Shown: positions 11,821-36,787, counted from the stretch's first letter. The stretch is DNA of 64,000 nucleotides from Candidatus Aminicenantales bacterium (GCA_049513915.1 JBEKVN010000001.1:158283-222282); one strand, 5' to 3'. Numbers and translations: made by a program. The notes: generated from the sequence alone by a model not told the origin.

Positions 11821-11826
11821 TCAACG

Positions 11827-13954: not shown

Positions 13955-13961
13955 CGGCGCC

Positions 13962-18061: not shown

Positions 18062-19198
18062 TTATCCGACGGAAGCTGCCAGCAAATGCTCAAGGACCCT
18101 TTTCGCCGTGTGCCCGTCCCATAATGGCGGAATCTGTCCCGTTCGCTGTGGCCCATCAAGCACTGCGCTGACGTCGTCAATAAGGCTATCGAATTTCGTC
18201 AGACGGTTGCTTCCCATGGTCACCGTGACAGGCCGTTCCGTCGTCGGTCGGAGCGTCAGGCACGGAGTCCTGAAGAAGGTGGCTTCCTCTTGGAGACCTC
18301 CGGAATCCGTCAGCACGAGCCTGGCGTTCTCTGTGAGGCATAGAGATTCAAGATATCCGATCGGCTCCATTAAAAGCAGCCGACCCTCAGGCCGCGGGGT
18401 CAGCCCGAATTCGGTCAGGTTCTTGCGCGTGCGTGGATGAATCGGAAAGACCACCGGCAGGTCTTGCGAGAAATGTTCCAGGCCGGACATGATCGTCGAG
18501 AGATTGGTTCGCCCATCTACGTTTGACGGCCGGTGTAACGTAACATAAACAAAGCGGCCGGGTTCGAGGCCAAGTCTGGCCAGAGTGTCGAGTGAACGAG
18601 TCTTCGGCAGGCTCTCGATCAAGGAATCGATCATGATGTTGCCGACGAACTTGATCTTTTCCCCGGGAATCCCTTCATGCATAAGGTTCTCGTTGGCGTC
18701 CCGGGAGGGAGTGAGAAGCAGGTCCGCCAGGGTGTCGGTCACGATGCGATTGATTTCCTCGGGCATTGTCCGGTCGTAACTCCGAAGGCCTGCTTCAATA
18801 TGCGCGATGCGAATGCCCATTTTCGCGCAGACTAGGGCACAGGCCATCGTGGAGTTGACATCCCCCACGACCACCACCCAATCCGGCTTTTCCCGTTCGC
18901 AAACAGTCTCGAAACCCGTGAGTATCTTAGCCGTTTGAGTGGCATGCGAACCCGACCCGACTCCAAGATTGACATCGGGAGGGCGGATTCCGAGCTCCCG
19001 AAAGAAGACCTCGGACATGTTCGCGTCATAATGCTGTCCGGTATGAACGAGCAGCGCCTCTACCGTTAAGGCTGCCGGCTCCTTGATGGAATTATAGGCG
19101 CTGATTTGCTTTAGGAGAGGCCCCACCTTCATGAAATTCGGGCGGGCGCCCGCAACAACTATTATTTTCAGCTTTCGCATTCGTGCATCTTCGGCCAT
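18062..19198 (-). CDS. wecB: UDP-N-acetylglucosamine (or UDP-GlcNAc3NAcA) 2-epimerase, non-hydrolysing (copy 1)
   Basis: IIVVAGARPNFMKVGPL...HTGQHYD...DSGGLQEE are WecB/MnaA hallmarks. Confidence 0.85.
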   Translation of the reverse strand: MAEDARMRKLKIIVVAGARPNFMKVGPLLKQISAYNSIKEPAALTVEALLVHTGQHYDANMSEVFFRELGIRPPDVNLGVGSGSHATQTAKILTGFETVCEREKPDWVVVVGDVNSTMACALVCAKMGIRIAHIEAGLRSYDRTMPEEINRIVTDTLADLLLTPSRDANENLMHEGIPGEKIKFVGNIMIDSLIESLPKTRSLDTLARLGLEPGRFVYVTLHRPSNVDGRTNLSTIMSGLEHFSQDLPVVFPIHPRTRKNLTEFGLTPRPEGRLLLMEPIGYLESLCLTENARLVLTDSGGLQEEATFFRTPCLTLRPTTERPVTVTMGSNRLTKFDSLIDDVSAVLDGPQRTGQIPPLWDGHTAKRVLEHLLAASVG

Positions 19199-21380: not shown

Positions 21381-21410
21381 TTGACAGGCGGCGGCTATTG
21401 TGGTTATAAG
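21381..21410 (+). promoter_or_regulatory. Candidate sigma70 promoter (TTGACA-N17-TTATAA) for the radical SAM operon, in a divergent intergenic region
   Basis: TTGACA at 21381-21386 and TTATAA at 21404-21409, preceded by a T-rich UP-like tract, about 85 nt upstream of the rSAM start. Confidence 0.4.
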
Positions 21411-21492
21411 TATTCCAAACACGGGGACCTAGGCCATGGGCCAGGCTCCGGACAGAATTGCGGGGCTAAATGCGCATTCAAGGGCCGCTCAG

Positions 21493-22935
21493 ATGAGAGT
21501 TGTTCTCATCAATCCTCCGACATCGTTCGAGCAGATCTACGGCGATTGGGATCTATCGGCGCTCGACACCTACACGCCACCCTTGGGGATCCTCCATATC
21601 GCCAGCTATATCAGAAAATTCGGGCACTCCGTGAAAATATTCGATCTCCAGCTTCCTGACCTGAAAATCTCGGATGCTATCCGACAAATCCGGTCCTGGC
21701 CCGCGGATATCGTCGGATTTACCGCCATGACCTCGAATTGCCGGAGCGCGCAGGAAATTGCCAAGGAAATCAAAAAGAGCCTTCCCGCCGTTCCCATCAT
21801 TCTGGGCGGGGCTCATATTTCGGCCGTTCCCACGGAAACCATGAAAAGATTCGTTGCCATCGATTTCGGCGTCATCGGAGAAGGCGAGGTCTCTTTTCTA
21901 GAGCTGCTTGGAAAAATCGCCGACGGGCAATCCGTTGCAGAGGTCAAGGGAATCGTCTGGCGGGCGGAAGACGGGAGGGCCGTCCTGAACGAGCCCCGGG
22001 CTCCCATCCAAAATCTGGACGACCTCCCGATGCCCGCCTGGGATCTCCTGGATCGTTTTCCCGAGGGCTATCCAAGCTCTCTCCTGGAGGCGAAGAGACT
22101 GCCGGGAACGGCAATCATGACGTCCCGAGGATGTCCATTTCACTGCACCTTCTGCGATCATCGGGTCTTCGGTTCGCGGGTCCGGCACTTTAGCGCGGAA
22201 TATTCCTTGAACATGATGAGACACTTGAAAAGCCGATATGACATAAGGGACCTGATGATCATCGACGACAATTTCCTGCTCGATAAAAGGAAGCTCTTCG
22301 AGATATGCGACGGGATGATGGCTGAAGATATGGATTTCACTTGGTATTGCATGGGCCACGAAAAATCCATGACAGACGACAGGCTGGCGAAGATCCGGGA
22401 AGCGGGATGTTGGTTCATTGAGATGGGTATAGAAAGCGGTAATGACGGTATTCTTGCGAAGATAAAGAAAGGGACAACAAAAGCCGACGTCGAAAGTGCG
22501 GTGAAACGGGCGAAGAAGGCGGGGTTGAAAATCAAAGGCAATTTCATTTTCGGATTTCCCGGCGAAACTCTCGAAACGTTGGAAGAAACAATCGAGTTCG
22601 CCTTGGGTCTCAAGATTGATTTCTTCCAACAAAACTTTTTGACCGTTTGGCCGGGGTGTGAGATAGCCGAGGAATTATCCAAAACGCCGCAGGCCGTTCA
22701 CAGGCTTGAAGATGATTGGGATAGGCTCGCCCATCAGAGGGCTACGTTCGTCCCCGCTGGAATGACTGGAGAACAGCTGGTCAAAGCTTCAAAAAGAGCA
22801 TTCCGGAGATTCTATCTGCGCCCTAGGATCATCAGCGGACTCATCCCGAGATTGGCATCGTGGCGGGGGCTAAAATTCGGCTTGCTCAGCTTCAGGGCAT
22901 TCCTGGGCACGATTTTCAGGCATAACACGGCTTGA
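21493..22935 (+). CDS. B12-binding-domain radical SAM protein (class B rSAM, probable C-methyltransferase or related)
   Basis: N-terminal Rossmann-like cobalamin-binding region (RVVLINPP...) followed by the radical SAM cluster motif SRGCPFHCTFCD (CxxxCxxC). The track ORF starts 19 codons upstream. Confidence 0.75.
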   Translation: MRVVLINPPTSFEQIYGDWDLSALDTYTPPLGILHIASYIRKFGHSVKIFDLQLPDLKISDAIRQIRSWPADIVGFTAMTSNCRSAQEIAKEIKKSLPAVPIILGGAHISAVPTETMKRFVAIDFGVIGEGEVSFLELLGKIADGQSVAEVKGIVWRAEDGRAVLNEPRAPIQNLDDLPMPAWDLLDRFPEGYPSSLLEAKRLPGTAIMTSRGCPFHCTFCDHRVFGSRVRHFSAEYSLNMMRHLKSRYDIRDLMIIDDNFLLDKRKLFEICDGMMAEDMDFTWYCMGHEKSMTDDRLAKIREAGCWFIEMGIESGNDGILAKIKKGTTKADVESAVKRAKKAGLKIKGNFIFGFPGETLETLEETIEFALGLKIDFFQQNFLTVWPGCEIAEELSKTPQAVHRLEDDWDRLAHQRATFVPAGMTGEQLVKASKRAFRRFYLRPRIISGLIPRLASWRGLKFGLLSFRAFLGTIFRHNTA

Positions 22936-23019
22936 CGTTGACAGGCCAGTTCCAAGGGTGTTACGGTATCCCGGATAGCAGCTGCCCGGAATCATGCTAT
23001 CCGAAAACGGGGCGGGAGA

Positions 23020-25302
23020 ATGAGCGCTAAGTCTGAAAAACAAACGCTTGCACGGCAGTTTACTTGGCTGGATCTGGTGAAGGCGGTTGCGCTCACCGGC
23101 ATCTTCCTCAACCATCTTGTCGAGAGGATATTCGGCTATCCGGAGATCGCCAACCCCCGCGTGGGGTGGCCTGCTTTCAGCGCGCGCTTTGAACAGCTGC
23201 GTCCTCTGACGGACCACGGCATCCTAAACGCTCCCATCAACCTCCTGCGCTGGACAGGATGGTTTGGCGAGCACGGTGTGGAGCTATTCCTGATCGTCAG
23301 CGGATTCGGCCTGACCTGGGGCCTCCTGGCCCGGTATGGAAACAAAGCTCTTCCGTTGCGTGATTTCTATTTCCGGAGGGCCGAGCGCATCTATCCCCTA
23401 TGGTGGGGGGCACACCTGGCCTTTATGGCCCTCTGGCTTCTGACCGGATTGGGATTGTCGATGGCCGATCCGGCCACCTATATGAGCTTTCTAGGCATCC
23501 GCGTTACGCCGTACCTGCTTTACTACTTCACGCCCGCTTGGTGGTATATCGGGCTCCTGCTCCAGCTCTACCTCGTATACCCGTTGCTGTGGGAGGCGCT
23601 TCGCCGCTGGAGCCCCGGAAAGCTTCTGATCGCGAGCTGCGGCATCGGCATCGCCGCCAGGGCTGTCGGATCGTTGATATTCACGAATTACCTGGAAGCA
23701 TGGCTGCGGGGTGCCATTTTTATTACCCGGCTGCCGGAGTTCGTGTTCGGCATCAGTCTTGCTGCTTGGATGTTCCGTGATCCCCAGCATATCGACGCCC
23801 GGATGCGCGCGCCGTCTACGATAATCTTAGCCCTGGCCGCCTGCCTCGTATCCTTCCCTCTGGCGTTAACGTTGCTCGGGATGGCGGTCGTGCCGTTCCT
23901 CCTTGGAGCGGGTATGTTGGTTCTTTTGTACGTCGTTCTGAGGAAAATCAAGAATTCAAAAAGGGGGATCGTCGGCCTGGGATCTTGGGTCGGCCGGCAT
24001 TCCTATTCTCTCTATATCGTCCACCATCCCTGCGTTCAGCTATTCATTCCGAAGGGACCAGCCGTATCGGGCAAAAGGGCCGTCGTTGGCTTCTTCATCG
24101 CCGTCATCGCCATGGCTATCAGTGCGTTGCTTCTGGAATTGGTGGTAAAACGCGTTTTGATGAGGCTGGGAAGATGGAAATTAAAAGTGGGGACGCTCGG
24201 CGCCGCGGCCCGCGTTGCCGTCATCGTGGCCGGGGTTGCGCTTGTTCTCGCCGCCGGCGACCTCGCGGTGCGCCGTTTCGCCCCGCAGGAAGTGCTCGGG
24301 TGGGGCGAACGGGCTTCCCTCGAACCCGATCCCGTGCTCGGGTGGCGGCTGAAGCCCTCGAGGACCACCCGGCTGCGCTGGGAGGGCTACGATTACACGG
24401 TGACATCGAACTCCCTCGGTTTCCCCGGGCCGGAATATCCCGAACTGAAAGAGCCGGGAGTGATCCGCGTCATGACGGTGGGCGATGCCTTTACCAGTGC
24501 CGAGGGAGTTAACACGGATCAGGCGTGGCCACGCTTGCTCGAGGCCGATTTGGCTCAGGGGCTTCCCGGTCAGCGGGTGGAAGTCTTGAATTTCGGCATT
24601 ACGGGTTTCGGCCCCATTCAGTACGCCCTCGTCTTCGAAAAGTATGCCCCAGTCTATAGACCGGATCTGTTGATCATCGGCTTTTTCGTCAACGAATACG
24701 AAGATGTGTCGATGAACGTGGAGAAGTTTCGTGATTCCATCGGCTTCGACCTTCCCTCCCAGGACAGCTGGCGGTCCATCGCTCAATTCGCGCAACTGCG
24801 GTCCTTCATCAAGCTGGAGCTCCGCCAGCCTCTTATGGAGCTGGTCGTTGGAAAACCTCGGGATCACGGCTATTTTCTCGGGAATTTTTCGGCCCTGGAA
24901 AAGGGAAGGACTGACATCAACGTCATTGGCCGGCAGCGCGTCGCCGAGCATCTCGAGCGGATCAAGGCGGTTGCCGACCGGATCGGCGCGAAGGTCCTGA
25001 TCGCCATGATCCCCGCTTCCGTGCAGGTTTGCGGACCCGCGCAGCTCGCTTATTACCCGAAGCCCGTGGACTTGACGGATTCCGAACGATTCGATATGGA
25101 ACAGCCGCAACGGATGACTCGCGGAATCGCCAGTTCGTTGGGCATCGCTTATCATGATCTGCGCGCGGTCCTCAAGTCCGTTGCAGGAGGCTGTGCGTAT
25201 CATCCCAAAAACATGCACTGGACCGTCGACGGTCACAAAGCCGTAGCCGAAGACCTTGCTCGAACATTGATTTCCGATCCGGACATCCTCCTGCGGCGAT
25301 GA
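23020..25302 (+). CDS. OatA-like O-acyltransferase: acyltransferase-3 membrane domain fused to a C-terminal SGNH hydrolase domain
   Basis: N-terminal 10-TM acyl_transf_3 region (LDLVKAVALTGIFLNH) and C-terminal SGNH block IRVMTVGDAFTSAEG. The architecture is that of OatA/peptidoglycan O-acetyltransferase. Confidence 0.7.
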   Translation: MSAKSEKQTLARQFTWLDLVKAVALTGIFLNHLVERIFGYPEIANPRVGWPAFSARFEQLRPLTDHGILNAPINLLRWTGWFGEHGVELFLIVSGFGLTWGLLARYGNKALPLRDFYFRRAERIYPLWWGAHLAFMALWLLTGLGLSMADPATYMSFLGIRVTPYLLYYFTPAWWYIGLLLQLYLVYPLLWEALRRWSPGKLLIASCGIGIAARAVGSLIFTNYLEAWLRGAIFITRLPEFVFGISLAAWMFRDPQHIDARMRAPSTIILALAACLVSFPLALTLLGMAVVPFLLGAGMLVLLYVVLRKIKNSKRGIVGLGSWVGRHSYSLYIVHHPCVQLFIPKGPAVSGKRAVVGFFIAVIAMAISALLLELVVKRVLMRLGRWKLKVGTLGAAARVAVIVAGVALVLAAGDLAVRRFAPQEVLGWGERASLEPDPVLGWRLKPSRTTRLRWEGYDYTVTSNSLGFPGPEYPELKEPGVIRVMTVGDAFTSAEGVNTDQAWPRLLEADLAQGLPGQRVEVLNFGITGFGPIQYALVFEKYAPVYRPDLLIIGFFVNEYEDVSMNVEKFRDSIGFDLPSQDSWRSIAQFAQLRSFIKLELRQPLMELVVGKPRDHGYFLGNFSALEKGRTDINVIGRQRVAEHLERIKAVADRIGAKVLIAMIPASVQVCGPAQLAYYPKPVDLTDSERFDMEQPQRMTRGIASSLGIAYHDLRAVLKSVAGGCAYHPKNMHWTVDGHKAVAEDLARTLISDPDILLRR

Positions 25303-26888
25303 ACGTGAACGATCTCTATCTTTATCGCATGGCTTTCATCCTTTTCGGAGCCGGCCTTGTTTCATTCGGCTTAATTTTTTCGCGCCGCAGGGACGGCTCA
25401 AGAAGCATAGCCTGGTGGGCCTTGAGTGGGTTCCTTTGCTTGAATATCGGTTTCGTCATCTATCTTTGGTTCAATCATATCCAATTCCCTTTGAACTTGG
25501 ACTTGATGGAAGGCACTATTTTGCAGGAATTCCAGCGGGCGGCTTCGTTTCAAGCGATTTATCCGGCTCCGACTCCAGGCTATATTCCTTTGGCCTACAA
25601 TCCGCTCTACTATTTCTTAGCTGTGCCCTTCAGTTGGATATTCGGAGTCAATCTGTTCACGTTGAGGTTCGCGGCCATTTTAGGGATGATGGGCAGCGGG
25701 GTTATCCTGTACCTCGTGGTGCGGAAAAAAACCAATTCCATTTGGTGGGGATTCGCAGCGGTCGGCCTTTTCGCGGGGGCCTATCGGGTCATGGACGCCT
25801 ACCTCGATTCCGCCCACTCGGACTCGTGGCTCCTGTTTTCCGCCCTCTTGGGGTCCTATCTCATCGACCGCAACAAGTCGAGGGCCTCAAGCCTCATCGG
25901 CGTCCTCGTTCTCGTATCGGCTTTCTGGTTCAAGCAGCACGGGGCTTTATTCGCCATCGGGGGCCTGCTCTATCTGACCCGGCGCGACGGCATCAAGGGC
26001 TCGATGGTCTATTGGCTGACGGCCATCGTTGCGGGACCGATCTTGTACATCTTCGCCGGCCCAACACTGTTCGGGCCATTCTTTCATTATTTCACGTGGG
26101 AAGTCCCCCGCAGATGGTCCTCGTTCGGATTGCATACGCTACGGCGATATTTCGGGTTCATCGCGCTTTCATACCCGATCCTGGCCCTTTCGGGCGGCCT
26201 GACGGTATTAGGGAAATTCGTGAAAGATACGAAAAAGCTGAGCATATGGGATGTCCAGTTCGTCTTCGCCCTGTTGAGCGGTTTCATGGGCAGCCTCGAT
26301 GCCGATTCATCGCACAACATCTACATCCCCATGGGAATGTGGTTCATTCTTCTGGGCTCTATCGGATTGTGGGAGTTCAGCCGAAAAAGGGAAACTCTCA
26401 AGAGGTTCGAGGTCCACATTTTCGCCCTCTTCGTAAGTCTCGCCTTCTTCATTTACAACCCAACGACGGTCATCGTTTCGCCGCGTGCCGACGCGGCCTA
26501 TAGCGAATTCGTCGGTGTCCTCAAAGGACTCAATGGGCCCGTTTATGCCCCTTCGCTCGGTCAGCTCCAGAAGGGCTACGCTTTCTATCCGGCAGCTCAT
26601 TGGGCGGCCTTGGAGGATATGATACGCGGGCCGGGTCTCGATACGAGAAACCATCCTAATACGCGCCGCTTCCTCGACCCCGTGATCAACCCCGGGGGGC
26701 CGGCCTATATATTTGCCAATTACCCGCTCGAGAAGTATCAATTCCTCGCGTTCTTGGAAGAGTATTATGTCCTGGCAGAGGATTTCGGGGATCGATTCAA
26801 AGCCCTGAGGGTCCTCCCGAAGCGCTGGGACCATGGCTGGCCCCGATACCTTTACCGACATCGAGGGTCCGAGACATCCGCGGAATGA
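25299..26888 (+). CDS. Polytopic membrane protein, GT-C-fold glycosyltransferase-like (ArnT/PMT-like)
   Basis: About 11 TM helices in the N-terminal two-thirds, a soluble C-terminal domain, and no other recognisable motifs. The call is from topology and context with the polyprenyl-P-sugar synthase gene. Confidence 0.45.
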   Translation: MNVNDLYLYRMAFILFGAGLVSFGLIFSRRRDGSRSIAWWALSGFLCLNIGFVIYLWFNHIQFPLNLDLMEGTILQEFQRAASFQAIYPAPTPGYIPLAYNPLYYFLAVPFSWIFGVNLFTLRFAAILGMMGSGVILYLVVRKKTNSIWWGFAAVGLFAGAYRVMDAYLDSAHSDSWLLFSALLGSYLIDRNKSRASSLIGVLVLVSAFWFKQHGALFAIGGLLYLTRRDGIKGSMVYWLTAIVAGPILYIFAGPTLFGPFFHYFTWEVPRRWSSFGLHTLRRYFGFIALSYPILALSGGLTVLGKFVKDTKKLSIWDVQFVFALLSGFMGSLDADSSHNIYIPMGMWFILLGSIGLWEFSRKRETLKRFEVHIFALFVSLAFFIYNPTTVIVSPRADAAYSEFVGVLKGLNGPVYAPSLGQLQKGYAFYPAAHWAALEDMIRGPGLDTRNHPNTRRFLDPVINPGGPAYIFANYPLEKYQFLAFLEEYYVLAEDFGDRFKALRVLPKRWDHGWPRYLYRHRGSETSAE

Positions 26889-26909: not shown

Positions 26910-28262
26910 TTATCGGGCCGCTTTGTCGAATTCAGGGGAATGTTTAAACTCGCCGACGAACTCCAGGGCCTTCCCGTTCGCCAAAGCGACGATCTCATTG
27001 ACGTTATTGGTTCCGTTGGGGATTTGGGCCGAGTTGGCTATGAAGACATTCCTCATGGACGTTGCCGACGGCGGAAAAGATTTTTCGTAATAGTCGAGAG
27101 TCGGGATGACCGGGAAATCGACGATCCTGGAAATACATGAAGCGACGAGGTCGTCGGATCCCAGGTCCGGATACATGATCCTCAAGGATGAAAGAAATAT
27201 GTCTTTGACCGCCTCGTCGTCTTTCTGGAACAGGGGATCGCCTTTCGTCAGGTATCGCGGCAGGTAGACGAGGGAATGGCCTCCGAAATTGGCCCTGTCC
27301 ACCAGGGCCGTCATCTCGATGATCCCAGTGAAGGGGATGCTCCCCTCGGCGATATTCGTGATGTAGAAGTCCGATAGGGGTTTTTTGAGGATGAGCGCGG
27401 CGCAGAGTAGATCCTGATGAACGACGCTCTTCAGTCGCGCCGTTTCCTGGACTGACAGCTGGGGACACAGCTCCAGGATTCGCGTGCACGGGACGGTCAG
27501 GACGACTTTATCGAAGTGGCGGGATTCGCCTCTCCCGGTTTCTATCGTCACACGGGGACCCTCGTCCTTCACCTTATGGACACGCGTTCCGGCCAAGGTC
27601 GTAACGCCCCTGTCGTCGAGCGAGCGCTGCAACGCATCGATAATCGTTTGATAACCGCCGTCCACGTACCCGAACATTTCTTTCTTCAGGCCTGTCCGCC
27701 GGGCCGCATATAACCGCGAGATGTGGGCCCATATGAACGACGCGCTGGCGAGGCCGTAGTCGGCGCCCAGCTTGCTCTTGAGCAGGGGCAGCCACATCTT
27801 GTCGAACGTGGCCCGGCCGGAGTGCCTTTTGAGCCAATCGACGGCCGTGATCCTCTCCAATCGTCTCCAATTCTTGATCTTCGAGCCGTAGAATATCGTC
27901 CAGCCGAGACGGAATTTATCGAGGATATTCAGCGGCGGGAAAAGCAGGTATTCGACGAGGTTCGATATGGAATAGAGCTTGCCGTCCGCGCAATAGCCCG
28001 TTTTCGTCACGCCCCAGCTCAGCCGGTCCTTAAGCCCCAGTTCGTCGAGGAGGGACAACAGATGGGAATCGGACAGGAGAATGACATGATAAAACCGGTC
28101 CCATCGATAGTCCCCCATGGCGCACGAGGCGGCCACGCCGCCCGTGTTCTCGGAGGTTTCCATCAAGGTGACGTCCAGCCCCGATTCCGCCAGCCGGAGA
28201 GACAACGCCATCCCAAGCAGGCCCCCTCCGACGACTCCGACGGACAACCGGCTATTGGTCAT
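26910..28262 (-). CDS. FAD/NAD(P)-binding oxidoreductase (amine-oxidase/PPO-like fold)
   Basis: Dinucleotide-binding motif VGVVGGGLLGMALSLRLAESGLDVTLME at the chosen start (ATG 28260-28262). The 81-aa Ser/Pro/Thr-rich extension in the track ORF overlaps the upstream gene and is rejected. Confidence 0.65.
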   Translation of the reverse strand: MTNSRLSVGVVGGGLLGMALSLRLAESGLDVTLMETSENTGGVAASCAMGDYRWDRFYHVILLSDSHLLSLLDELGLKDRLSWGVTKTGYCADGKLYSISNLVEYLLFPPLNILDKFRLGWTIFYGSKIKNWRRLERITAVDWLKRHSGRATFDKMWLPLLKSKLGADYGLASASFIWAHISRLYAARRTGLKKEMFGYVDGGYQTIIDALQRSLDDRGVTTLAGTRVHKVKDEGPRVTIETGRGESRHFDKVVLTVPCTRILELCPQLSVQETARLKSVVHQDLLCAALILKKPLSDFYITNIAEGSIPFTGIIEMTALVDRANFGGHSLVYLPRYLTKGDPLFQKDDEAVKDIFLSSLRIMYPDLGSDDLVASCISRIVDFPVIPTLDYYEKSFPPSATSMRNVFIANSAQIPNGTNNVNEIVALANGKALEFVGEFKHSPEFDKAAR

Positions 28263-29331
28263 TTTTCCGGCGGAGGTCCTTGTGGATGGTCGTGTTGAGG
28301 TAGTAAAGCTCCTCGAAATAGCGCTTCTTCTGGAGGGAAAGAAGGCCGAGGCTGATGAGCTGGATGGCCACGAGCAGGGCGATGCCGCCGACGATGAACG
28401 AATGGGGCGAGGCTGCGAAGGCTGCGCCGATGGCGTCGGATAATCTGTAGTCGAAGGACAGGCCGGGGCCCGCGGCCTTGCGATAGGCGTGGATCGTGTG
28501 GACAACCGTCCAGGTCAACGGATAAAGGGAGAGCACGAAAAGAAGGCCGCCCGGGACGATGAAAAACATGAAGGGCCGGAAGATGTATCCGGAGAGGATG
28601 TGATGGACCATGCTCCTCGCGACCTTCAGGGACGATTTTCTCCGTACCGCGAGAGACCCTGTCTCAAGAGCCGGCTTCCAATCGAGATGGGCCGGGCATT
28701 CCATGATCCGGGCCCGCAGGATCTTTGCTTTGTAGATGATTTCCGGGTTGATCTCGACGTCCATAGACTTAAGGGTCAACCGACGCAGGAATTTGCCGTC
28801 GTAGGCACGGACCATACCCGTGATCGTCGTGAGCTTGTCGGACTGGCTGTCCTTGGCGACCGTCATAGCCAAAAAACGGTTGGCCCAAAAGCTCAGGAGC
28901 CTGCGGGCCCAGGGAACGTTCGAGACCTTGCCGCCCTTAGCGTAGGGAGAGGCGATAACGATCTTGGCCCCCGTCTCTTTCATCCGGGCCAGCATCCGGC
29001 CGACATGCGCGGGGGTGTAGCTGAGGTCGATGTCCAGGACGGCGACATAATCGCCCTTGCTTTCATTAAAGGCGAATCGGAGGGCCTGCCCGAGCTTGAA
29101 ATTGAACTTGTGATGGAGGACGACTACACGACCCCGCTCCGCCGCGAAAGAGTCGGCGATCTTGCCGGTCGCGTCGGTGCTCCCATCGTCGACCACGATC
29201 AGCTCCCAGCGGTATTCCGCCTCGAGGCTGGCCAGGTATTCGCAGATGATGGACAAATTGTGTTGGATGATCTGTTCTTCGTTGTAGGCCGGGACGATGA
29301 CCGTGAGGAGAGGCTTCTCTGGAGGCATCAT
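28252..29331 (-). CDS. GT2 polyprenyl-phosphate sugar synthase (DPM1/GtrB/ArnC-like) with C-terminal TM helices
   Basis: PLLTVIVPAYNEEQ, VVDDGSTD and DID motifs, plus two C-terminal membrane helices. This architecture is typical of bactoprenol-P-sugar synthases. Confidence 0.7.
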   Translation of the reverse strand: MMPPEKPLLTVIVPAYNEEQIIQHNLSIICEYLASLEAEYRWELIVVDDGSTDATGKIADSFAAERGRVVVLHHKFNFKLGQALRFAFNESKGDYVAVLDIDLSYTPAHVGRMLARMKETGAKIVIASPYAKGGKVSNVPWARRLLSFWANRFLAMTVAKDSQSDKLTTITGMVRAYDGKFLRRLTLKSMDVEINPEIIYKAKILRARIMECPAHLDWKPALETGSLAVRRKSSLKVARSMVHHILSGYIFRPFMFFIVPGGLLFVLSLYPLTWTVVHTIHAYRKAAGPGLSFDYRLSDAIGAAFAASPHSFIVGGIALLVAIQLISLGLLSLQKKRYFEELYYLNTTIHKDLRRKNDQ

Positions 29332-30305
29332 GCTCCTTTCGCCCTGAGGCTTCGGACCCTCGATCGCCCTTTTTTAACCATGAGCGATTCGGCATAGACA
29401 TCCATAGGCACGAGTTGGAACTTCTTCGAAAGGATTTCCATGACTCTCGAGAGCGCCCTCTGCTTCTTCTCTTTTATTATGTCCATGCCGGGAAAAAAGG
29501 CAAGCCCGGGAACCTCTTCGGCGCTCAGGAAATCGAGGGGATGGAGAAGGAAGCTCAGGCCGGTCCGGGTCCACCGGCACAAATTCGCGGCGGTCCCGAG
29601 ATAATCGAGCATCAAGGCGTCGGAAAAACGGGCCATATAGAGAAGATAGCTGAAATGGATCGGGACTTTGAAAAACGGCATAGTCGTCACGGGGATTTCC
29701 AACAAACGTCCTCCGCCTGGAAGAGCCCAAGAATAGGGTTTTACCGGCAGGAGGGCCTCGCGAAAGCCGCCGAAGAGCTTTTTCCGGTCCCTCTTTTCGT
29801 CGGGGGTGAGGTCGGATTTCCAGAAGTAATAGAGACGCCCAAGCGGGCCGATCCACGTCGGGAGCGTCGAAGCGTCATAGTTGTAGTCGAGCTCCTTCAA
29901 GACGAGGATTAAGTCTTCGCTCCAGCTGAAGCCCGGTCCGCGGAAGCCGGCCGGTCTTCGTCCTGTGGCTTCTTGGATGGCTTTTTCTGCAAGAAGGATC
30001 TCTTCCCGGATCTTCTCCCGTGGGAAAAGATGGAGCCACGGCTCGTGCCGATGGGAGTGATTCCCGACGTCGTGGCCGTTTCTGGTGATCTCGGCCAGGG
30101 CTCTACGGTTCTTGTCCAGCGCGGCATCCTGACCCACGACGAAGAAGGTCATTTTCAAGTCCAGGCGGCCGCAAAAATCGAGGACCTGCGGGATTAAGAT
30201 GTCCAAATAGGAAGGGTAATCCTCCCATCCCGTATCGCCGTGGGTCTTCACGTAGGACCACTTGTTGTCGAGGTCGAGAGAAAGCGCGGCCAGGGGCTTT
30301 TTCAT
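29328..30305 (-). CDS. Polysaccharide deacetylase (CE4, NodB homology domain)
   Basis: MTFFVVGQDA and GNHSHRHE are classic NodB motifs. Start at Met-30 (ATG 30303-30305) makes an ATGA overlap with the upstream stop. Confidence 0.75.
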   Translation of the reverse strand: MKKPLAALSLDLDNKWSYVKTHGDTGWEDYPSYLDILIPQVLDFCGRLDLKMTFFVVGQDAALDKNRRALAEITRNGHDVGNHSHRHEPWLHLFPREKIREEILLAEKAIQEATGRRPAGFRGPGFSWSEDLILVLKELDYNYDASTLPTWIGPLGRLYYFWKSDLTPDEKRDRKKLFGGFREALLPVKPYSWALPGGGRLLEIPVTTMPFFKVPIHFSYLLYMARFSDALMLDYLGTAANLCRWTRTGLSFLLHPLDFLSAEEVPGLAFFPGMDIIKEKKQRALSRVMEILSKKFQLVPMDVYAESLMVKKGRSRVRSLRAKGA

Positions 30306-31969
30306 GAGTGGACGGCCTTTTGGACCAGACGCGAGGCAAATCCGTCCCAACCGGCCGGTTCCTCCACCGGGCCGGGGTCGGCGAGGAGGCATCCGGTCGT
30401 GCAGGTTTCCGCGATGGCCTTGACTTTTTCGAAACCGGCCCGGTTGAACTCGTCCAAGGCATAGCGGTCGTTGGCAAAACGGATGAAGGAGTCGACCTCG
30501 TTGGAGAAGCCCGTCTTCATGGCCCGGAAGCCGTGGTAGACGGCGTCGACGAATTCGAGCGGTGGCCTGGTCTTGCCGCGTCCTAAGCCATGGAAGGCGA
30601 TGTCCTTAGCCGGACTATCCGTCCGGCCGAGCAGGTTGCAGCCGTCGAAGATGTGTTTCAATCTCGGCGCCGCCCGCAATATCGACTCCAAGTTCTCGCG
30701 GTAGGCGCGGTGGCCCGCGCAAAACACGAGCAGATCGGCTTTCCCGAGGGCTTCGTCAAGGTCCCGTGTGAAGTGCCCGGTGAGCCGGGATTTTTTCAAA
30801 TTCTGATCATCCTTTTTGACGTAGGGATCATGGAGAACGACATCGGCGCCCTTGGCCAGCAGCAAGTTGGCCAGGACGAGCGTCGGCGAATTACGGGTAT
30901 CCTCGGAGTCTGGACGGTAAGCCGTGCCCATGAGCGCGAGGGTTTTGCCGGCGACGTCCCCCGAGCGCCGCTCGATGAGCGAGATCGCCACGGCCGGGGA
31001 CTCGTCGTTGATACGCCGCGCTTCGAGGATCAGACTGGAGGACATGTCCCGGCCGCTCTCGATCTGCCTCCAAAGGAGGAGGATCCCGTCCTTGGGAAGG
31101 CAGTGCCCCCCGACCCCGACCGTCGGGATGAGCAGGCCGCCGGTCGGGACCTCGCTCGAGGCCGAGGAGGCCAGGTCGCTCCACGCCAGGCGCCGGTTGA
31201 CTTCATCCCGGATGCAGTAATAGTCGATATCCTTATCTTCGCAGGCCCGGGCGATTTCGACCGAGTAGGCGATCCGGACGTCACGGTAGGCGTTCTCGAG
31301 CGTTTTCACGATCTCCGCGGTGAGGCTGTTCGTGAGATGGAGCTTGCCGTTGCGGACGATCGAGGAATATAGGGAGTGGATGAGCTTCGGCGTTCGAGGG
31401 TCGAGCCCGCCGGCGACCTTGTCGGATCGCCTAATCCGCTCCACGAGCCGGCCGGGCATGACGCGATTGGGGCTGTTGCCGAGAAGGATCGTCCGGCCGT
31501 CGGCGAAACCATGCCGGCCGAAAAGGTCCGCGACCCAGGTGGCCATGGATGTCGGGGCGAGGGTGGACTCGAAGATGACCAAGGGAGTCTTCCCGGAACG
31601 CCTTCTCTTGAGGGCTTCCGCCGTTCGATGGATCGCGTCTTCCAAGGGCTCGTAATCGGGCCCGAACCCCTTTTTATCGGTCTGGACGCAGATAAGGATC
31701 GCATCGGCCTCTCTGAGGTCGGCGTAATCATGGCTGGCCGTCAGCCGTCCCCGAGCGTGCGCTTCGGCCACGATCCCATCGAGCTCGGGCTCGATCCCTC
31801 CGATGGGGGATTTTCCGCGATTGATCGCGTCCACCTTCCAGCCCGAGGTCGGGGAGGCACGTTGGATGACGACGACGCGATGGCCGGCTTCGGCGAGCAG
31901 GGCGGCCATCGGGACTCCGACGATGCCCGCTCCGATGACCGCAATGTCCTGGATTTCCGTTTCCGGCAT
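30302..31969 (-). CDS. UDP-sugar 6-dehydrogenase (UDP-glucose/GDP-mannose dehydrogenase family; WbpA/WecC-like) with C-terminal extension
   Basis: IAVIGAGIVGVPMAALLAEAGHRVVVI (NAD site) and GGHCLPKD (catalytic Cys). Start at ATG 31967-31969. Confidence 0.8.
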   Translation of the reverse strand: MPETEIQDIAVIGAGIVGVPMAALLAEAGHRVVVIQRASPTSGWKVDAINRGKSPIGGIEPELDGIVAEAHARGRLTASHDYADLREADAILICVQTDKKGFGPDYEPLEDAIHRTAEALKRRRSGKTPLVIFESTLAPTSMATWVADLFGRHGFADGRTILLGNSPNRVMPGRLVERIRRSDKVAGGLDPRTPKLIHSLYSSIVRNGKLHLTNSLTAEIVKTLENAYRDVRIAYSVEIARACEDKDIDYYCIRDEVNRRLAWSDLASSASSEVPTGGLLIPTVGVGGHCLPKDGILLLWRQIESGRDMSSSLILEARRINDESPAVAISLIERRSGDVAGKTLALMGTAYRPDSEDTRNSPTLVLANLLLAKGADVVLHDPYVKKDDQNLKKSRLTGHFTRDLDEALGKADLLVFCAGHRAYRENLESILRAAPRLKHIFDGCNLLGRTDSPAKDIAFHGLGRGKTRPPLEFVDAVYHGFRAMKTGFSNEVDSFIRFANDRYALDEFNRAGFEKVKAIAETCTTGCLLADPGPVEEPAGWDGFASRLVQKAVHS

Positions 31970-31971
31970 GA

Positions 31972-33873
31972 TCAATGCTTCTCCGGGCGCTTCTTGTCGA
32001 TGAATTCCCTGAACCAGAGCTCGAGAGCCAGAAGCCCCCAAAGGCGGCGGCCGAAGGCTTCCTCCTGGCTGATTAGCTTCTCGACCTGGGCCGGGGCGAA
32101 GAGGCCGCGGTCCTTGCAGGCCGAAGACAGGAGAATATCCTGGCAGAAACCTCTTAGCTTGTTCCTTGCCCAGAGGTGGAGCGGGACAGGGAATCCCATC
32201 TTGTCTTTTCGTCCTAGGATGACGGGCGGGAGCAGGTCCCTCAGCGCGTGTTTGAAGATGTACTTCATCTCCGCGCCCTTGAATTTCAGGGCGGGAGGCA
32301 TGGAAGTGACCAATTCCACCAGGCGGTGATCGAGAAGAGGAACCCGGGACTCGAGGGAGACGGCCATGGTGACCCGGTCTTCTACGTGGAGAAGGGCGGG
32401 CAGGCTGGCGGACAGGTCGAAATGAACCATCTTGTTGTAGTAGGACAAGGTGTTCGGATTGTTGAAGACCTGCTGGAACCTGGCGAATATTCGGTCGATG
32501 GAGAAGCTCCTGTTGAACTCGTAGCTCAGGATGCTCCGGTCGCTCCTCCCGCCCCTGTTGATCAGCCGGAAATACCGGGCGTCCATCGGCTCGAAAAGGC
32601 CGTCTTGCCAGAATTTCTGAAGCATGGGAACGTATTGCTTGACGGCCGGCAAGTTGGGCAGTATGGAGTGAAGGGAGACGATGTGCTCGCCCTCGTCGTT
32701 GGTCTCGAAGATGGCGCCCTTGAGTGCCTGTTCGAGATAAGCGATAACGTATCGCGTGTAGCCGCCGAAGATCTCGTCCCCGCCTTGGCCCCCGAGGACG
32801 ACTTTGACATGTTGGGCGGCCAGGCGAGAGACCATATATTGGGGGAAAAGCCCGGGCCCGGCCATCGGCTCGTCCATGTGATAGATCAAGCGGGGGAGGA
32901 GGGAAATGAAATCGTCCTCCGTCGGGAAGATTTCGAAGACGTCGGCTTCGCAGGCTGCGGCCACGGCCCGGGCGTAGGCGGTTTCATCGAATTCCGGGCC
33001 TTCCTTGAAGGCGCCCGTGAATGTCTTGAGCCGCTGCGGGTAAGCACGCGACGCCAGCATGGTGATCACGCTGGAATCGATCCCGCCGCTCAGATAGGCC
33101 CCTACGGGGACATCGCTTCTCAGCTGGATGCGGACCGAGTCCTCGAGCAGGCCCCTGAGCCGATCGGCGAAATCTGCTTCTGTGGTCCGGGTATCCACCG
33201 TGAAGTCCAGCTCCCAATATTTCACCGCCCTCGTGTCGTAGGTTTCGAGGTCGATGAGGAGATAGTAGGCCGGCGGGACCTTGTGAATACCTTTGAACAG
33301 AGTCTCGGAGTTGAAAACGAACTGAAGGACCAGATACTCTTGGATGGCATCCATGTCCGGTTCGGCCTTGACGGCCGGGTGCTCGAGCAGGGCCTTGATC
33401 TCCGAACCGAAGACGAGGTGCCGCTTGTCTTCGAAATAATAGAGGGGCTTGATGCCGAAATGATCCCGGGCGGCCATGACCCTCTTCCTTTCCCGATCGT
33501 AGAGCACAAATGCGAACATGCCGTTCAGGCGCCGGATGAAATCGGGGCCATCCTCGAGATAGAGATGCAGCATGACCTCGGTGTCGGATTGAGTGGAAAA
33601 GACGTGGCCGGCCTGCTTCAGGGACTCCCGCAATTCGATGTAGTTGTAGATCTCCCCGTTGAAGACGATGGTCAGGGGCCCAAAGCTCATCGGCTGCTTC
33701 CCCGATACGAGGTCGATGATGGAGAGCCGCTTGTGGTAGAGCCCGGCGCCCCCCTCGATCCAATGGCCCTCTTCGTCGGGACCGCGGTGGCTGATTTTTT
33801 CCGCCATCCGCGCGAGCAGGCGGAAATCGACAGGCGCTCGGTCTTTGTTGAAGATGCCCACGAAACCGCACAT
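31972..33873 (-). CDS. Asparagine synthase-family glutamine amidotransferase (EpsI/WbpS-like, probable uronate amidation)
   Basis: N-terminal nucleophile MCGFVGIF and PP-loop SGGIDSS in the synthetase domain. 633 aa. Confidence 0.85.
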   Translation of the reverse strand: MCGFVGIFNKDRAPVDFRLLARMAEKISHRGPDEEGHWIEGGAGLYHKRLSIIDLVSGKQPMSFGPLTIVFNGEIYNYIELRESLKQAGHVFSTQSDTEVMLHLYLEDGPDFIRRLNGMFAFVLYDRERKRVMAARDHFGIKPLYYFEDKRHLVFGSEIKALLEHPAVKAEPDMDAIQEYLVLQFVFNSETLFKGIHKVPPAYYLLIDLETYDTRAVKYWELDFTVDTRTTEADFADRLRGLLEDSVRIQLRSDVPVGAYLSGGIDSSVITMLASRAYPQRLKTFTGAFKEGPEFDETAYARAVAAACEADVFEIFPTEDDFISLLPRLIYHMDEPMAGPGLFPQYMVSRLAAQHVKVVLGGQGGDEIFGGYTRYVIAYLEQALKGAIFETNDEGEHIVSLHSILPNLPAVKQYVPMLQKFWQDGLFEPMDARYFRLINRGGRSDRSILSYEFNRSFSIDRIFARFQQVFNNPNTLSYYNKMVHFDLSASLPALLHVEDRVTMAVSLESRVPLLDHRLVELVTSMPPALKFKGAEMKYIFKHALRDLLPPVILGRKDKMGFPVPLHLWARNKLRGFCQDILLSSACKDRGLFAPAQVEKLISQEEAFGRRLWGLLALELWFREFIDKKRPEKH

Positions 33874-33886
33874 GCTTAAAGACCTC

Positions 33887-35005
33887 TCATTGGGTCAGCC
33901 CGGCCAGGATTTTGACGATCCGCTCGGATGTCTTGCCGTCCCCGAAATAGGGGGGAGGTTCCGGGAGGTCCGCGCGGTCCAATTTTGCAAAGGCCCGGAC
34001 GATGGCTTCGGTCTTTGCGCCCGCGACGATGTTCCAGCCGCTCTCCACCGTTTCCGTCCATTCAGTTTCGTCTCGCAGGGTGACGCAGGGGACACGGGCG
34101 AAATAGGCTTCCCGCTGAACACCCCCCGAGTCCGTCAATATGGCTTTGGCCTGAGACTCCAGGGCGACCATGTCCAGGTAGTTGATAGGAGGGATCAGCC
34201 GGACATGTCGATTCATGGGCATAGGGAGCTTATTGTCGAGCAGCGATTTGCGTGTCCGGGGATGAAGGGGCACGATAATCGGGCAGCGCTCGTTCGCCAG
34301 CTCCGAAAAGGAGGAGAAAATGGAATGTAATCGGACAGGATCATCGGCATTCTCCTGCCTGTGGACCGTGGCCAAACAATAAGAATGGCGCTTGAGATCG
34401 AGGGTCCGAAGGACTTCGGATGTCTTCAACGCGACTTTCTTGTGGAGCAGGAACGCATCCAACATGACGTCCCCGACCCGGTGGACGCCCCGGACGATGC
34501 CCTCCGTCTTCAGATTCAGGATGGACGCTTCCGTCGGGCAGAAGAGCAGGCTCGAGATCCGGTCCGTGAGTATCCGGTTGATTTCCTCGGGCATGCGGCG
34601 ATTATGGCTCCTCAAGCCGGCCTCGACGTGAGCGATCGGGATGTTCATTTTCACCGCGGCCAGCGCCCCGGCAAGAGTCGAATTCGTATCCCCATAGACG
34701 AGGGCCAGGTCCGGGCGTTCCTCTATCAAGACACCCTCGATGCGGGCCAGCATTTTGGCCGTCTGCTCGCCGTGTCGACCCGACCGTACGCCAAGATGAT
34801 ATTGGGGGGTGGGGATATCGAGCTGGTCGAAAAAAACCTGGCTCATTTCGGAGTCGTAATGCTGCCCCGTGTGGACCAGGACCTCATCCAGCCGCGGGGC
34901 CTGCTTTCGACGGTTGTAGGCCTTGATCGCCTTGTTCACAACGGCCGCCTTTACGAATTGCGGGCGTGTGCCCACGATCGTCACGAGCCGAACAGTCTTT
35001 TTCAT
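33887..35005 (-). CDS. wecB: UDP-N-acetylglucosamine 2-epimerase, non-hydrolysing (copy 2)
   Basis: VTIVGTRPQFVKAAVV...HTGQHYD...DSGGVQREA. A clear paralog of the 18062-19198 gene. Confidence 0.85.
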   Translation of the reverse strand: MKKTVRLVTIVGTRPQFVKAAVVNKAIKAYNRRKQAPRLDEVLVHTGQHYDSEMSQVFFDQLDIPTPQYHLGVRSGRHGEQTAKMLARIEGVLIEERPDLALVYGDTNSTLAGALAAVKMNIPIAHVEAGLRSHNRRMPEEINRILTDRISSLLFCPTEASILNLKTEGIVRGVHRVGDVMLDAFLLHKKVALKTSEVLRTLDLKRHSYCLATVHRQENADDPVRLHSIFSSFSELANERCPIIVPLHPRTRKSLLDNKLPMPMNRHVRLIPPINYLDMVALESQAKAILTDSGGVQREAYFARVPCVTLRDETEWTETVESGWNIVAGAKTEAIVRAFAKLDRADLPEPPPYFGDGKTSERIVKILAGLTQ

Positions 35006-35260
35006 TTGGTATCAATCACGACCATCATCAGCCGTCAAGTCGGCCGGATCCCAGCCGTGCTGCCGGATACCATTCTTGTTGTTTTAGGCAAAAATATCAA
35101 TACTCGTGACGGATTAGCTAGGGGGTGATAATTACGTGCCGAAGATCACCTCAAAGGGTGAGGCCGGGCGTCTCCATTTGCCCGGTTGACTATAAGGCGA
35201 GCGATCTTTCTTGATGTAAATGCCTCAATAGATATAATAGGGCCAGCGAACACGCCAACA

Positions 35261-36787
35261 ATGGCAAAAATCAGAGGGCTTTTGCGTTCCTTCGACAAAA
35301 ACTCACGGGCGGCCCTTTTCCCGATTCTTATCCATCTTTCCATCACTATTCCGCTGGCTGCGGCGCTCAACATATGGATCGATGAAGCCCATACGATGAA
35401 CACCATCAGCGGCTCCTTGTCTCATACGCTCGACAGGGCGATGAGTTTCGAGATGCAGCCTCCCTTGTACTTCATTTTCATGAACCTCTGGGCAAGATTG
35501 GGATCCTCGGTTCTTTTCCTGAGATTATTCTCCGTCCTCTGCATGATCTCGGCCATCTGGCTGGCCTCGCGGATATCGAAGAGCATGTTTCCCGAGCTCC
35601 ATCCCGGTTGGCTGCCTCTGGCCGTCGCGATCAATCCCTACGCTATATGGGCCGCGACGGAAATGCGGTTATATGCTTTCCTTGTCCTCTTGACTTCGGC
35701 CCTCCTCTTGACGTTCTACCAGGGATTCCTGTCGGACGACCCGGCAGCGAAGGGAAAAAGGAAATGGTTTTTCGTTTTTTGCGTGCTGTCCCTCTATACC
35801 CAGTATTACGCGGCATTCCTGCTCACAGCCATGTTCTTAGGGCTCGTTCTATTGAAGAGATGGGGGCCGCTGAAAAAGCTCGCTGGATATTATGTTTTGG
35901 TAGTCGCCAGCGTTCTTCCGATTCTCTTGGCCGCGGTGCGGCAGACGGCGCAGCACCGGAAGTTCATGATTGCCGATAACGGTGTCCTAAACTATTTATC
36001 CGTGGGAACTCGCTTCCTGCGCTATCTTTTGAGGCTGGAATGGATGCCCTCGCCGATCTACATGTTTATTTACACTGCCTGCCTGGCCGGCTTCCTGGGT
36101 TTTATCATGAAGCATCGTAAGAATCTCAGAGACGTACATAAAATGATTGGGGTCATGATCCTCATCGTCACAGTTTTTTACCTAGCATCCATGCCTTTTG
36201 TAAATAACGAACTGGTCAATACCAGACATACCACCGTACTGTTCATTCCCGCGCTCCTGCTACTGGTTGCCGCCCTGAGTCTCCTGCCTGCGGACCGAAG
36301 AAGGAAAAGTGCCATCGGTGCGCTCTTGGTAATGGCGTTGGCAAATGCAATCTACATGGTCGGGGAATACTCGCCAATGGCAAAATTCGGGGATTCTCGG
36401 AGAGTCGCCGAATACATCGCCAACAATGAAGTGTCCGGACAGCCCATATTGGTTTTCATATCAGAGTTGGCCCTGCCCTTCGCTTATTATTATTCGGGCA
36501 AAAATATCGTCATTCCGATACCGGATAAAGCTCCGACAACCTACTATGATGTGAACGACTTTGCCCTGAAAAGCGAACAGGATATCACTCGGGCTGTCGA
36601 TAGGGAGGGATTGCGGCCGGAGTATGTCTGGGTCGTCACTTGGGGATTATGCGAGTACCTTGGGGTGGACTATCACTGCGAAATATTGGAGAAATATATC
36701 CAGAATTCCTTCACCGTCGAAGACGATAAGAGCTTTTACCATTCAAGGGTACGCCTGCTACGCCTAAAGAACATAAGCGGACCATAA
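35261..36787 (+). CDS. GT-C-fold membrane glycosyltransferase (ArnT/PMT family-like)
   Basis: Short cytoplasmic N-terminus, TM1, then NIWIDEAHT (the DE motif in the first periplasmic loop typical of ArnT/PMT). More than 10 TM helices plus a C-terminal soluble domain. ATG 35261 is preferred over the TTG at 35186. Confidence 0.55.
   Translation: MAKIRGLLRSFDKNSRAALFPILIHLSITIPLAAALNIWIDEAHTMNTISGSLSHTLDRAMSFEMQPPLYFIFMNLWARLGSSVLFLRLFSVLCMISAIWLASRISKSMFPELHPGWLPLAVAINPYAIWAATEMRLYAFLVLLTSALLLTFYQGFLSDDPAAKGKRKWFFVFCVLSLYTQYYAAFLLTAMFLGLVLLKRWGPLKKLAGYYVLVVASVLPILLAAVRQTAQHRKFMIADNGVLNYLSVGTRFLRYLLRLEWMPSPIYMFIYTACLAGFLGFIMKHRKNLRDVHKMIGVMILIVTVFYLASMPFVNNELVNTRHTTVLFIPALLLLVAALSLLPADRRRKSAIGALLVMALANAIYMVGEYSPMAKFGDSRRVAEYIANNEVSGQPILVFISELALPFAYYYSGKNIVIPIPDKAPTTYYDVNDFALKSEQDITRAVDREGLRPEYVWVVTWGLCEYLGVDYHCEILEKYIQNSFTVEDDKSFYHSRVRLLRLKNISGP

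Follow-up and report, generated by a model that had tools for sequence, protein, structure and literature searches.

The 64,000-nucleotide stretch of DNA from a Candidatus Aminicenantales metagenome-assembled genome (MAG) that we analyzed, called the window here, encodes a class-B (cobalamin (B12)-binding) radical S-adenosylmethionine (SAM) enzyme on the plus strand at 21493..22935. This radical SAM enzyme (rSAM) belongs to a tight, widespread, unnamed and so far unstudied family that is separate from all curated equivalogs, and the family is found repeatedly inside a gene cassette that resembles those of the Arn and Gtr glycosylation systems. We propose that the rSAM carries out a radical tailoring step in a lipid-carrier glycosylation pathway of the Arn/Gtr kind and that its reaction is C-methylation of a sugar; for pathway and chemistry taken together, we put the probability at about 0.45, a little short of even. 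The proposal is built on domain content, folds, the distinctness of the family and gene associations, from which we infer substrate, order of steps and chemistry. The rSAM gene is followed on the same strand by a gene for an acyltransferase-3 (AT3) protein with an SGNH-like domain (23020..25302) and a gene for a glycosyltransferase of the GT-C fold (25299..26888), and these three open reading frames (ORFs) exist as an earlier reading of the sequence, the original prediction, had described them. The rSAM-AT3-GT-C unit does exist, yet it forms one margin of a system that is larger and better conserved.

The class-B membership of the rSAM is solid. Pfam searches detected a B12-binding domain (PF02310) at residues 45-157 with 85.3 bits against a cutoff of 32.1, and a Radical_SAM domain (PF04055) at residues 229-389 with 89.4 bits against a cutoff of 29.5. 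The CxxxCxxC motif, present as C233-P-F-H-C237-T-F-C240, is invariant across 24 homologs, and so are GG(A)H at residues 124-127 and T99 in the B12-binding domain. The DxHxxG histidine ligand is absent from this B12-binding domain, as it is from base-off/His-off class-B structures. SPASM, Fer4 and other Pfam domains were not found at E<=0.01, and the C-terminus consists of three helices with no auxiliary-cluster domain. The original prediction had called the enzyme a class-B rSAM and had suggested classification with hidden Markov models; these domain and motif results agree with that call. Besides the CxxxCxxC cysteines, the barrel region carries the invariant cysteines C291, C305 and C325 and the near-invariant C408, which form no SPASM motif and could be active-site hydrogen-atom donors or cluster ligands. 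The last 60 residues (440-499; 22753-22935) fold into amphipathic helices; their net charge is +11, compared with +2 for the whole protein. This basic tail is conserved in the family, and it may dock the rSAM peripherally at the membrane. The NCBI annotation starts the protein at 21436 (499 amino acids, MGA2531532.1). However, homologs start at residue M20 of the window protein, the sequence about that ATG is conserved in close relatives, and the conserved 'ATGAGAGT' also points to 21493, which is thus the likely start and gives a protein of 480 amino acids.

The family is distinct from named relatives. Neither the window rSAM nor any of 24 sampled family members reached an NCBIfam equivalog. 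The original prediction had named membership of the bacteriochlorophyll or hopanoid clades with their synteny, or the lack of a B12 Rossmann motif, as grounds for abandoning it. The B12 Rossmann domain is well above threshold, and identity with HpnJ (TIGR03471; 187.4 bits against a cutoff of 577.6), BchE (TIGR02026; 166.6 against 481.35) and HpnR (106.4 against 650) was rejected on scores far below the cutoffs, while HpnP is not among the NCBIfam matches of the rSAM. Genomic context leads to the same conclusion: the hopanoid genes shc, hpnH, hpnI and hpnK were not found in the window or in related loci, which contain only sub-threshold HpnA-, HpnB- and HpnE-like matches, and photosynthesis genes were not found in any related locus. 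The models for PhpK (143 against 600) and AprD4 (79 against 500) also scored below their cutoffs. When 1.84 billion representatives were searched exhaustively, the family formed a single cluster at 50% identity at 617 bits, after which scores dropped to 375 bits or less; at 90% identity it comprises more than 120 clusters, which are 50-85% identical to the query. The named carriers are all MAGs and come from Bacteroidales, Holophagae, Planctomycetota, Acidobacteriota, Prolixibacteraceae, Methanocellaceae and Hodarchaeota, so that identity of at least 50% is kept across Acidobacteriota, Bacteroidota, Planctomycetota and archaea. A genome scan found eight family loci, again in MAGs only. The 90%-identity cluster of the window rSAM is represented by a fragment of 55 amino acids, and therefore homology searches miss MGA2531532.1 and top out at 85% identity. 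The difference between this best match and the 100% match of the neighbouring protein is thus a database artefact and not a real mismatch.

Some family members and relatives occur in unusual arrangements. Four giant proteins of 2000-2300 amino acids (P0353, P0358, P0362 and P0375) contain 4-7 tandem stretches similar to the rSAM at about 30% identity and have the appearance of B12-rSAM arrays with many domains. Family members are often accompanied by another radical SAM gene, although the window has none. It encodes a divergent B12-rSAM paralog in two loci (L003, 6350-7765; L007, 5233-6678) and a UPF0004/MiaB-like protein in a Bacteroidales-type cassette (L004, 11523-12731). In the Methanocellaceae MAG (L009), one same-strand run (2157-12389) contains a deacetylase-GT2 fusion, two more deacetylases, a MiaB-like (UPF0004) rSAM, the family rSAM and two further B12-rSAM paralogs.

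The gene neighbourhood of the family points to sugar metabolism. We fetched 75 loci and scored the window proteins against them by tblastn; 51 loci had a homolog of at least 50% identity, of which 42 were non-redundant and 25 were informative, with at least 6 kb of flank. The commonest partner in the informative loci is a NodB deacetylase (18/25), followed by an FAD oxidoreductase (16/25) and a GT2 glycosyltransferase with a C-terminal membrane anchor (14/25), and 17 of the 25 loci have at least two of these three. A UDP-sugar dehydrogenase and AsnB occur in 10/25 loci each. The AT3-SGNH protein was found in 6/25 loci and the window-type GT-C in 5/25, one or the other being present in 7/25. 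Immediate adjacency, defined as the same strand and less than 400 nt from the rSAM, was counted over the 42 non-redundant loci. By this measure, the GT2 and an AT3-type acyltransferase are each adjacent in 8/42 loci, the latter figure including AT3s of 29-30% identity in Bacteroidales-type cassettes, whereas the deacetylase is adjacent in 4/42 and a GT-C-like membrane protein in at least 4/42. The original prediction regarded AT3 and GT-C as the partners of the rSAM and suggested a search for orthologous neighbourhoods. The rSAM-AT3 adjacency does recur in several lineages, but the convergent minus-strand cassette is the commoner association (17/25 versus 7/25). It also held class-B rSAMs to be rare in exopolysaccharide (EPS) pathways, which is wrong for this family, since the family is large and consistently glycan-associated.

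We considered whether rSAM, AT3 and GT-C are merely a lineage-specific juxtaposition without shared function, the AT3 and GT-C acting on an unrelated acceptor. The AT3+GT-C pair, with the same 4-nt overlap as in the window, stands alone in an Anaerolineaceae locus with neither an rSAM nor sugar genes (L018), and a further locus (L019) likewise has the pair without an rSAM; furthermore, many rSAM loci have neither AT3 nor GT-C. On the other hand, the rSAM has an AT3 homolog of 29-78% identity immediately next to it in five or more separate lineages (L026, L029, L031, L049 and the window clade), and GT-C homologs flank it in L039 and L011. We regard a mere juxtaposition without shared function as improbable. 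Splitting the locus into two unrelated modules, the rSAM cassette and the AT3+GT-C pair, is only partly right: the pair can stand alone, yet in several lineages AT3 lies directly beside the rSAM.

In the window, the core cassette is a convergent minus-strand operon (26910-35005) whose genes overlap or abut. Its first gene encodes a WecB UDP-GlcNAc 2-epimerase (33887..35005; TIGR00236, 322.8 bits against 210). This is followed by an AsnB-type glutamine amidotransferase (31972..33873; TIGR01536, 521.5 bits; XrtA-system amidotransferase model, 481 against 817) and by a long nucleotide-sugar dehydrogenase of the UDP-N-acetyl-mannosamine (UDP-ManNAc) type (30302..31975; TIGR03026, 271.8 bits against 189.8), the boundary of which was adopted from the gene calls of L076, a contig of the same organism. 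UDP-ManNAc dehydrogenase models are the best partial matches of the latter protein. The domain matches of these three enzymes point to an N-acetyl-amino-uronic acid or its amide as the sugar. The next gene encodes a NodB/CE4 polysaccharide deacetylase (29328..30305; Polysacc_deac_1, 70 bits) in which the HSHRH metal motif is seen. It is followed by a GT2 with two C-terminal transmembrane (TM) helices (28252..29328), whose best PDB relatives are the Pyrococcus dolichol-phosphate-mannose synthase (DPMS; 5mlz, 2.3e-16), ArnC and GtrB and whose partial NCBIfam matches are PgfS, AglJ, PpgS and ArnC. By homology, the GT2 is predicted to be a polyprenyl-phosphate sugar synthase. Deacetylase and GT2 are fused in a Holophagae locus and in the Methanocellaceae locus (L006 and L009, respectively), which ties these two steps together. 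The last gene of the cassette encodes an FAD-dependent oxidoreductase of the amine-oxidase/PRK07233 family (26910..28262; NF005560, 416.5 bits against 252). L076, which is an independent Logan assembly, begins inside this last gene at about 27.6 kb of the window, beside the GT-C/AT3/rSAM block; this break could reflect strain heterogeneity at that point or coverage alone.

Three-component glycosylation systems consist of a polyprenyl-phosphate sugar synthase, a flippase and a GT-C enzyme, to which auxiliary enzymes that modify the lipid-linked donor are sometimes added (PMC11127046). In the pathway that we propose, WecB, the UDP-ManNAc-type dehydrogenase and AsnB would make the N-acetyl-amino-uronic acid or its amide, and the DPMS/ArnC/GtrB-like GT2 would load it onto polyprenyl phosphate. 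Tailoring of the carried sugar would take place at the cytoplasmic face, through the NodB deacetylase, the FAD oxidoreductase and the cobalamin-dependent rSAM, the last perhaps held at the membrane by its basic tail. A flippase would then turn the product over, a GT-C enzyme would transfer it to the surface glycan, and the AT3-SGNH protein would O-acylate outside the cell. The rSAM is expected to act in the cytoplasm because it requires SAM and reducing equivalents, and its substrate would therefore be a nucleotide-linked or polyprenyl-phosphate-linked sugar. By analogy, C-methylation of an unactivated sugar carbon is the single most likely reaction, because methylation dominates class-B chemistry and sugar C-methylases of this class exist in antibiotic pathways, namely MoeK5, GenK and GenD1. 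Of the class-B enzymes characterized so far, most are methylases, and the sugar C-methylases MoeK5 and GenK are among them (PMC9204698, PMC12931638).

Several points weigh against this proposal. The co-occurrence figures are raw counts from tblastn on 25 mostly short metagenomic contigs, taken without a background for the gene density of glycan loci. The core cassette is missing, within the available flanks, from about 30% of the informative loci; these loci still have glycan genes, that is, a PMT_2 GT-C, RmlD/epimerase genes or a GT4. Neither a flippase nor a small multi-TM ORF outside the called genes was found in the window by a crude method, and a flippase could be encoded elsewhere. No feature that we found separates methylation from other class-B chemistry. 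The C-methylation put forward in the original prediction thus stands as the commonest class-B chemistry, but neither sequence nor fold distinguishes methylases from non-methylases here, a general point that a review of the field makes as well (PMC9204698). The score of the B12-binding domain is the one ground for predicting that the rSAM binds cobalamin. Lastly, the top curated matches of the rSAM, HpnJ and BchE, are non-methylases, and its best solved match, AprD4, is a cobalamin-independent dehydratase.

The resemblance to HpnJ leads to the main rival, an HpnJ/OxsB-like non-methylating rearrangement. In this reaction, hydrogen abstraction from a de-N-acetylated, lipid-carried amino sugar would contract or rearrange the ring and yield a carbocyclic or branched sugar. 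Among curated models, HpnJ scores highest with 24/24 family members (best E 2.8e-59). In addition, the commonest partner of the rSAM is a deacetylase, followed by a lipid-loading GT2, which mirrors the series HpnI (GT2), HpnK (deacetylase) and HpnJ (rSAM) in hopanoid cyclitol-ether synthesis (PMC9204698). However, the rSAM reaches only about a third of the HpnJ cutoff, and HpnJ co-clusters with the methylases Fom3 and MoeK5 in a published sequence similarity network (PMC9204698), and therefore resemblance to HpnJ does not imply HpnJ chemistry. The reaction of HpnJ is itself merely a proposed one. Moreover, the deacetylase of the cassette is of the NodB/CE4 type, whereas HpnK is a YdjC-type deacetylase. 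We therefore consider a rearrangement unlikely, albeit the main competitor of C-methylation. A more specific form of it, in which a polyprenyl-phosphate-linked, de-N-acetylated amino-uronic sugar is converted without methylation to a carbocyclic or branched 'pseudo-sugar' that GT-C enzymes install in bacterial and archaeal surface glycans, seems to us rather unlikely. If this is true, surface glycans would contain a building block of a new class, and its formation would be the first radical step in a three-component glycosylation system.

The other alternative concerning chemistry is that the rSAM resembles AprD4 and acts as a dehydratase or deoxygenase, or is some other redox radical enzyme, and produces a deoxy or keto sugar. 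The FAD oxidoreductase would then serve it as redox partner, in the way that AprD3 serves AprD4, and the Rossmann domain might not hold cobalamin. AprD4 is the best solved match of the rSAM both by sequence (2.5e-21) and by structure (E 1.8e-26, TM-score 0.70/0.77), its substrate is an amino sugar, and the FAD oxidoreductase is a frequent partner of the family. AprD4 also illustrates that a similar fold can exist without cobalamin. Nevertheless, the sequence similarity is remote, at about 20% identity, and is confined to the rSAM core (residues 193-411), while the B12-binding domain is far over threshold and conserved throughout the family. Furthermore, MgmA, TokK, TsrM, OxsB and CysS follow AprD4 in the sequence comparison, and in the structure comparison TsrM, OxsB, MgmA, CysS and TokK are nearly tied with it (E 1e-22 to 1e-25, TM-score 0.63-0.72). 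We consider AprD4-like chemistry distinctly unlikely and retain sugar C-methylation as the working proposal.

The AT3 protein encoded downstream of the rSAM has the OafA/OatA architecture. Its Acyl_transf_3 domain (PF01757) scored 90.9 bits against a cutoff of 31, and the protein retains the conserved AT3 hallmarks H41 in TM1, F90-x-I-S-G-F96 and R120xxR123. The SGNH/GDSL-like region at the C-terminus is atypical and scored below the Pfam cutoff (Lipase_GDSL_2, 26.3 bits against 32.9). Thus, of the acyltransferase-3/SGNH fusion that had been predicted, the AT3 part is firmly established and the SGNH part is below threshold. SGNH block I (residues 488-496) reads as an invariant G-D-A-F-x-S instead of GDS, with alanine at the position of the canonical nucleophile, and the C-terminal motif (residues 731-739) is N-M-H-W in place of DxxH. 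Both GDAFxS and NMHW are kept in orthologs down to 48% identity (Anaerolineaceae), and S493 is a candidate nucleophile of the SGNH-like domain.

The AT3 gene overlaps the gene for the first GT-C protein by 4 nt (ATGA). This polytopic protein scored only 20.1 bits against a cutoff of 26.1 with the Pfam model PMT_2, and a profile of its family found no match among PDB sequences; only structure comparison succeeded. Its structural model, with a predicted local distance difference test score (pLDDT) of 90, is predicted to have the GT-C membrane fold, as the original prediction had supposed. The top 20 or so PDB matches in Foldseek are all GT-C enzymes, with ArnT first (5f15, E 3.2e-6, TM-score 0.52) and AftA, AglB, AftB and PglB among the others. 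After TM2, E71 is invariant and D68 is a consensus residue; both are candidates for the acidic catalytic residue expected in the first outer loop of GT-C enzymes. A second GT-C (GT39/ArnT-like) membrane protein is encoded on the plus strand at 35261..36787, divergent from the cassette. It is unannotated and polytopic and has no Pfam match of its own, but many of its homologs carry PF13231 (PMT_2) and are named GT39 or ArnT-like, and in the Bacteroidales-type cassettes L004, L008, L031 and L033 a homolog comes after the GT2. This second protein may be the cognate transferase of the cassette. The ORF at 35186-36787 was also considered as a flippase, which we rejected in favor of the second GT-C in view of its GT39/ArnT-like homologs.

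The three plus-strand genes are plausibly co-transcribed. A promoter-like element, TTGACA-N18-TATAAG, lies at 21381..21410 on the plus strand in the divergent intergenic region upstream of the rSAM gene, with its -35 hexamer at 21381, the first coordinate of the interval in the original prediction. The element occurs once in the window, where 0.06 occurrences are expected by chance; three relatives all keep TTGA of the -35 hexamer, and L001 has nearly the whole element. A stricter scan for promoter consensus sequences did not call it because the last base of its -10 hexamer is not T. No terminator-like site was predicted in the 84-nt gap between the rSAM and AT3 genes. Promoter activity of the element is likewise plausible. 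On the other side of the intergenic region, the minus strand encodes a DUF354 fusion protein (19201-21288) and a second WecB (18062-19198), both assigned by Pfam and NCBIfam. In the fusion protein of 695 amino acids, DUF354 is confined to the C-terminal half (337-654), and the conserved N-terminal stretch of about 330 residues has no Pfam match. These two genes are lineage-specific, being found only in the close relatives L002, L020 and L022.

The rSAM lies in a large surface-glycan locus of about 60 kb, where an exosortase, a Wzy_C protein, DegT aminotransferases and several GT2s are also encoded; the label of an EPS locus given in the original prediction is fair. The NCBI names of the proteins are generic, such as 'radical SAM protein', 'acyltransferase family protein', 'hypothetical protein' and 'FAD-dependent oxidoreductase'. 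The exosortase (57871-59277) scored 127.9 bits against 105.55 with the EpsH model TIGR02602; within 57245-59277 it adjoins, and as called overlaps, an ORF for a NagX-like membrane N-acetyltransferase, and the true start of the exosortase probably lies downstream of the ORF start. A bifunctional homocysteine methyltransferase/methylenetetrahydrofolate reductase is encoded at 59931-61754. The original prediction suggested that such methionine-cycle genes could supply methyl groups; the gene is real, but it lies 37 kb from the rSAM, beyond the exosortase, and the link is positional only, with nothing tying it to the rSAM.

The locus also has genes for aminoacylation-type machinery, which is extensive over 3824-14954 and 38104-50686. 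There are three FemAB-like genes (5719-6822, 13962-14954 and 42443-43477), two adenylating enzymes (40842-42425 and a DltA-like one at 49004-50686), two NAD-synthase-like genes (38104-39099 and 43563-44525), a TupA-like ATP-grasp protein (3824-4738) and a DltB-like MBOAT with DUF1574 (10375-12789). On L076, a PP-binding carrier was called in the 39.1-39.9 kb gap. The original prediction had allowed for an attached peptide as the substrate, and a peptide or protein could be methylated in the manner of ribosomally synthesized and post-translationally modified peptides (RiPPs), either as a FemAB-added peptide on the glycan or as a PEP-CTERM protein. The FemAB-like genes, adenylating enzymes and exosortase of the window are consistent with this, and the RiPP methylase models ApyD and rSAM_ocin_1 gave partial matches of about 150 bits. 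However, these scores are far below the cutoffs (750 and 282, respectively), and the conserved neighbourhood in distant lineages has no FemAB or adenylation genes, only sugar genes recurring there. Conservation thus gives no support to a peptide substrate, which we consider very improbable.

Class-B rSAMs are known almost wholly from antibiotic, cofactor, lipid and protein-modification pathways. The present family spans Acidobacteriota to methanogenic and Asgard archaea, and our proposal predicts an undescribed, radically modified amino-uronic sugar, either C-methylated or rearranged, on the surfaces of many uncultured organisms of sediment, peat and soil. It gives rSAM enzymologists a defined and testable substrate hypothesis, although its practical consequence is modest until the product is known. 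Reviews of cobalamin-dependent rSAM enzymes from 2022 and 2026 name no member from cell-surface glycan assembly (PMC9204698, PMC12931638), and a targeted literature search for B12-rSAMs in EPS, O-antigen or GT-C contexts returned nothing relevant.

Four kinds of known systems can be compared with this locus in addition to the AT3 proteins. OafA, OafB and OatA share the two-domain architecture and the AT3 hallmark residues with the window protein and differ from it in the SGNH-like domain, as described above. AprD4, the rSAM 1,2-diol dehydratase of apramycin biosynthesis, is the closest solved protein and acts on an amino sugar, but the likeness is limited to the rSAM core, and the 2026 review groups AprD4 with enzymes unrelated to the B12-dependent set (PMC12931638). 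HpnJ with HpnI and HpnK follows the same logic, in which a B12-type rSAM works together with a GT2 and a deacetylase on an amino sugar attached to a lipid; in contrast, the window has no hopanoid genes nearby, another deacetylase family, a polyprenyl-phosphate-type GT2 and GT-C proteins. MoeK5, GenK and GenD1 have the same class-B architecture as the window rSAM and act on unactivated sugar carbons (PMC9204698, PMC12931638). They belong to actinomycete antibiotic pathways (moenomycin, gentamicin), whereas the setting here is a primary surface glycan with polyprenyl-phosphate/GT-C machinery, and the likeness drawn here is one of architecture and of proposed reaction. The moenomycin pathway of MoeK5 also uses a lipid-linked uronic acid and AsnB-type amidotransferases. 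The Arn (ArnC, ArnD, ArnT) and Gtr-type systems, like the window locus, combine a DPMS/ArnC/GtrB-like GT2, a NodB-family deacetylase (the family to which ArnD belongs), an ArnT-fold GT-C and a UDP-sugar dehydrogenase. The window, in which no flippase was found, adds a B12-rSAM and an FAD oxidoreductase, and we know of no described three-component system that contains either. In summary, the components are all of known kinds, but a B12-rSAM and an FAD oxidoreductase within a lipid-carrier/GT-C cassette that is conserved in both prokaryotic domains appear to be an undescribed combination.

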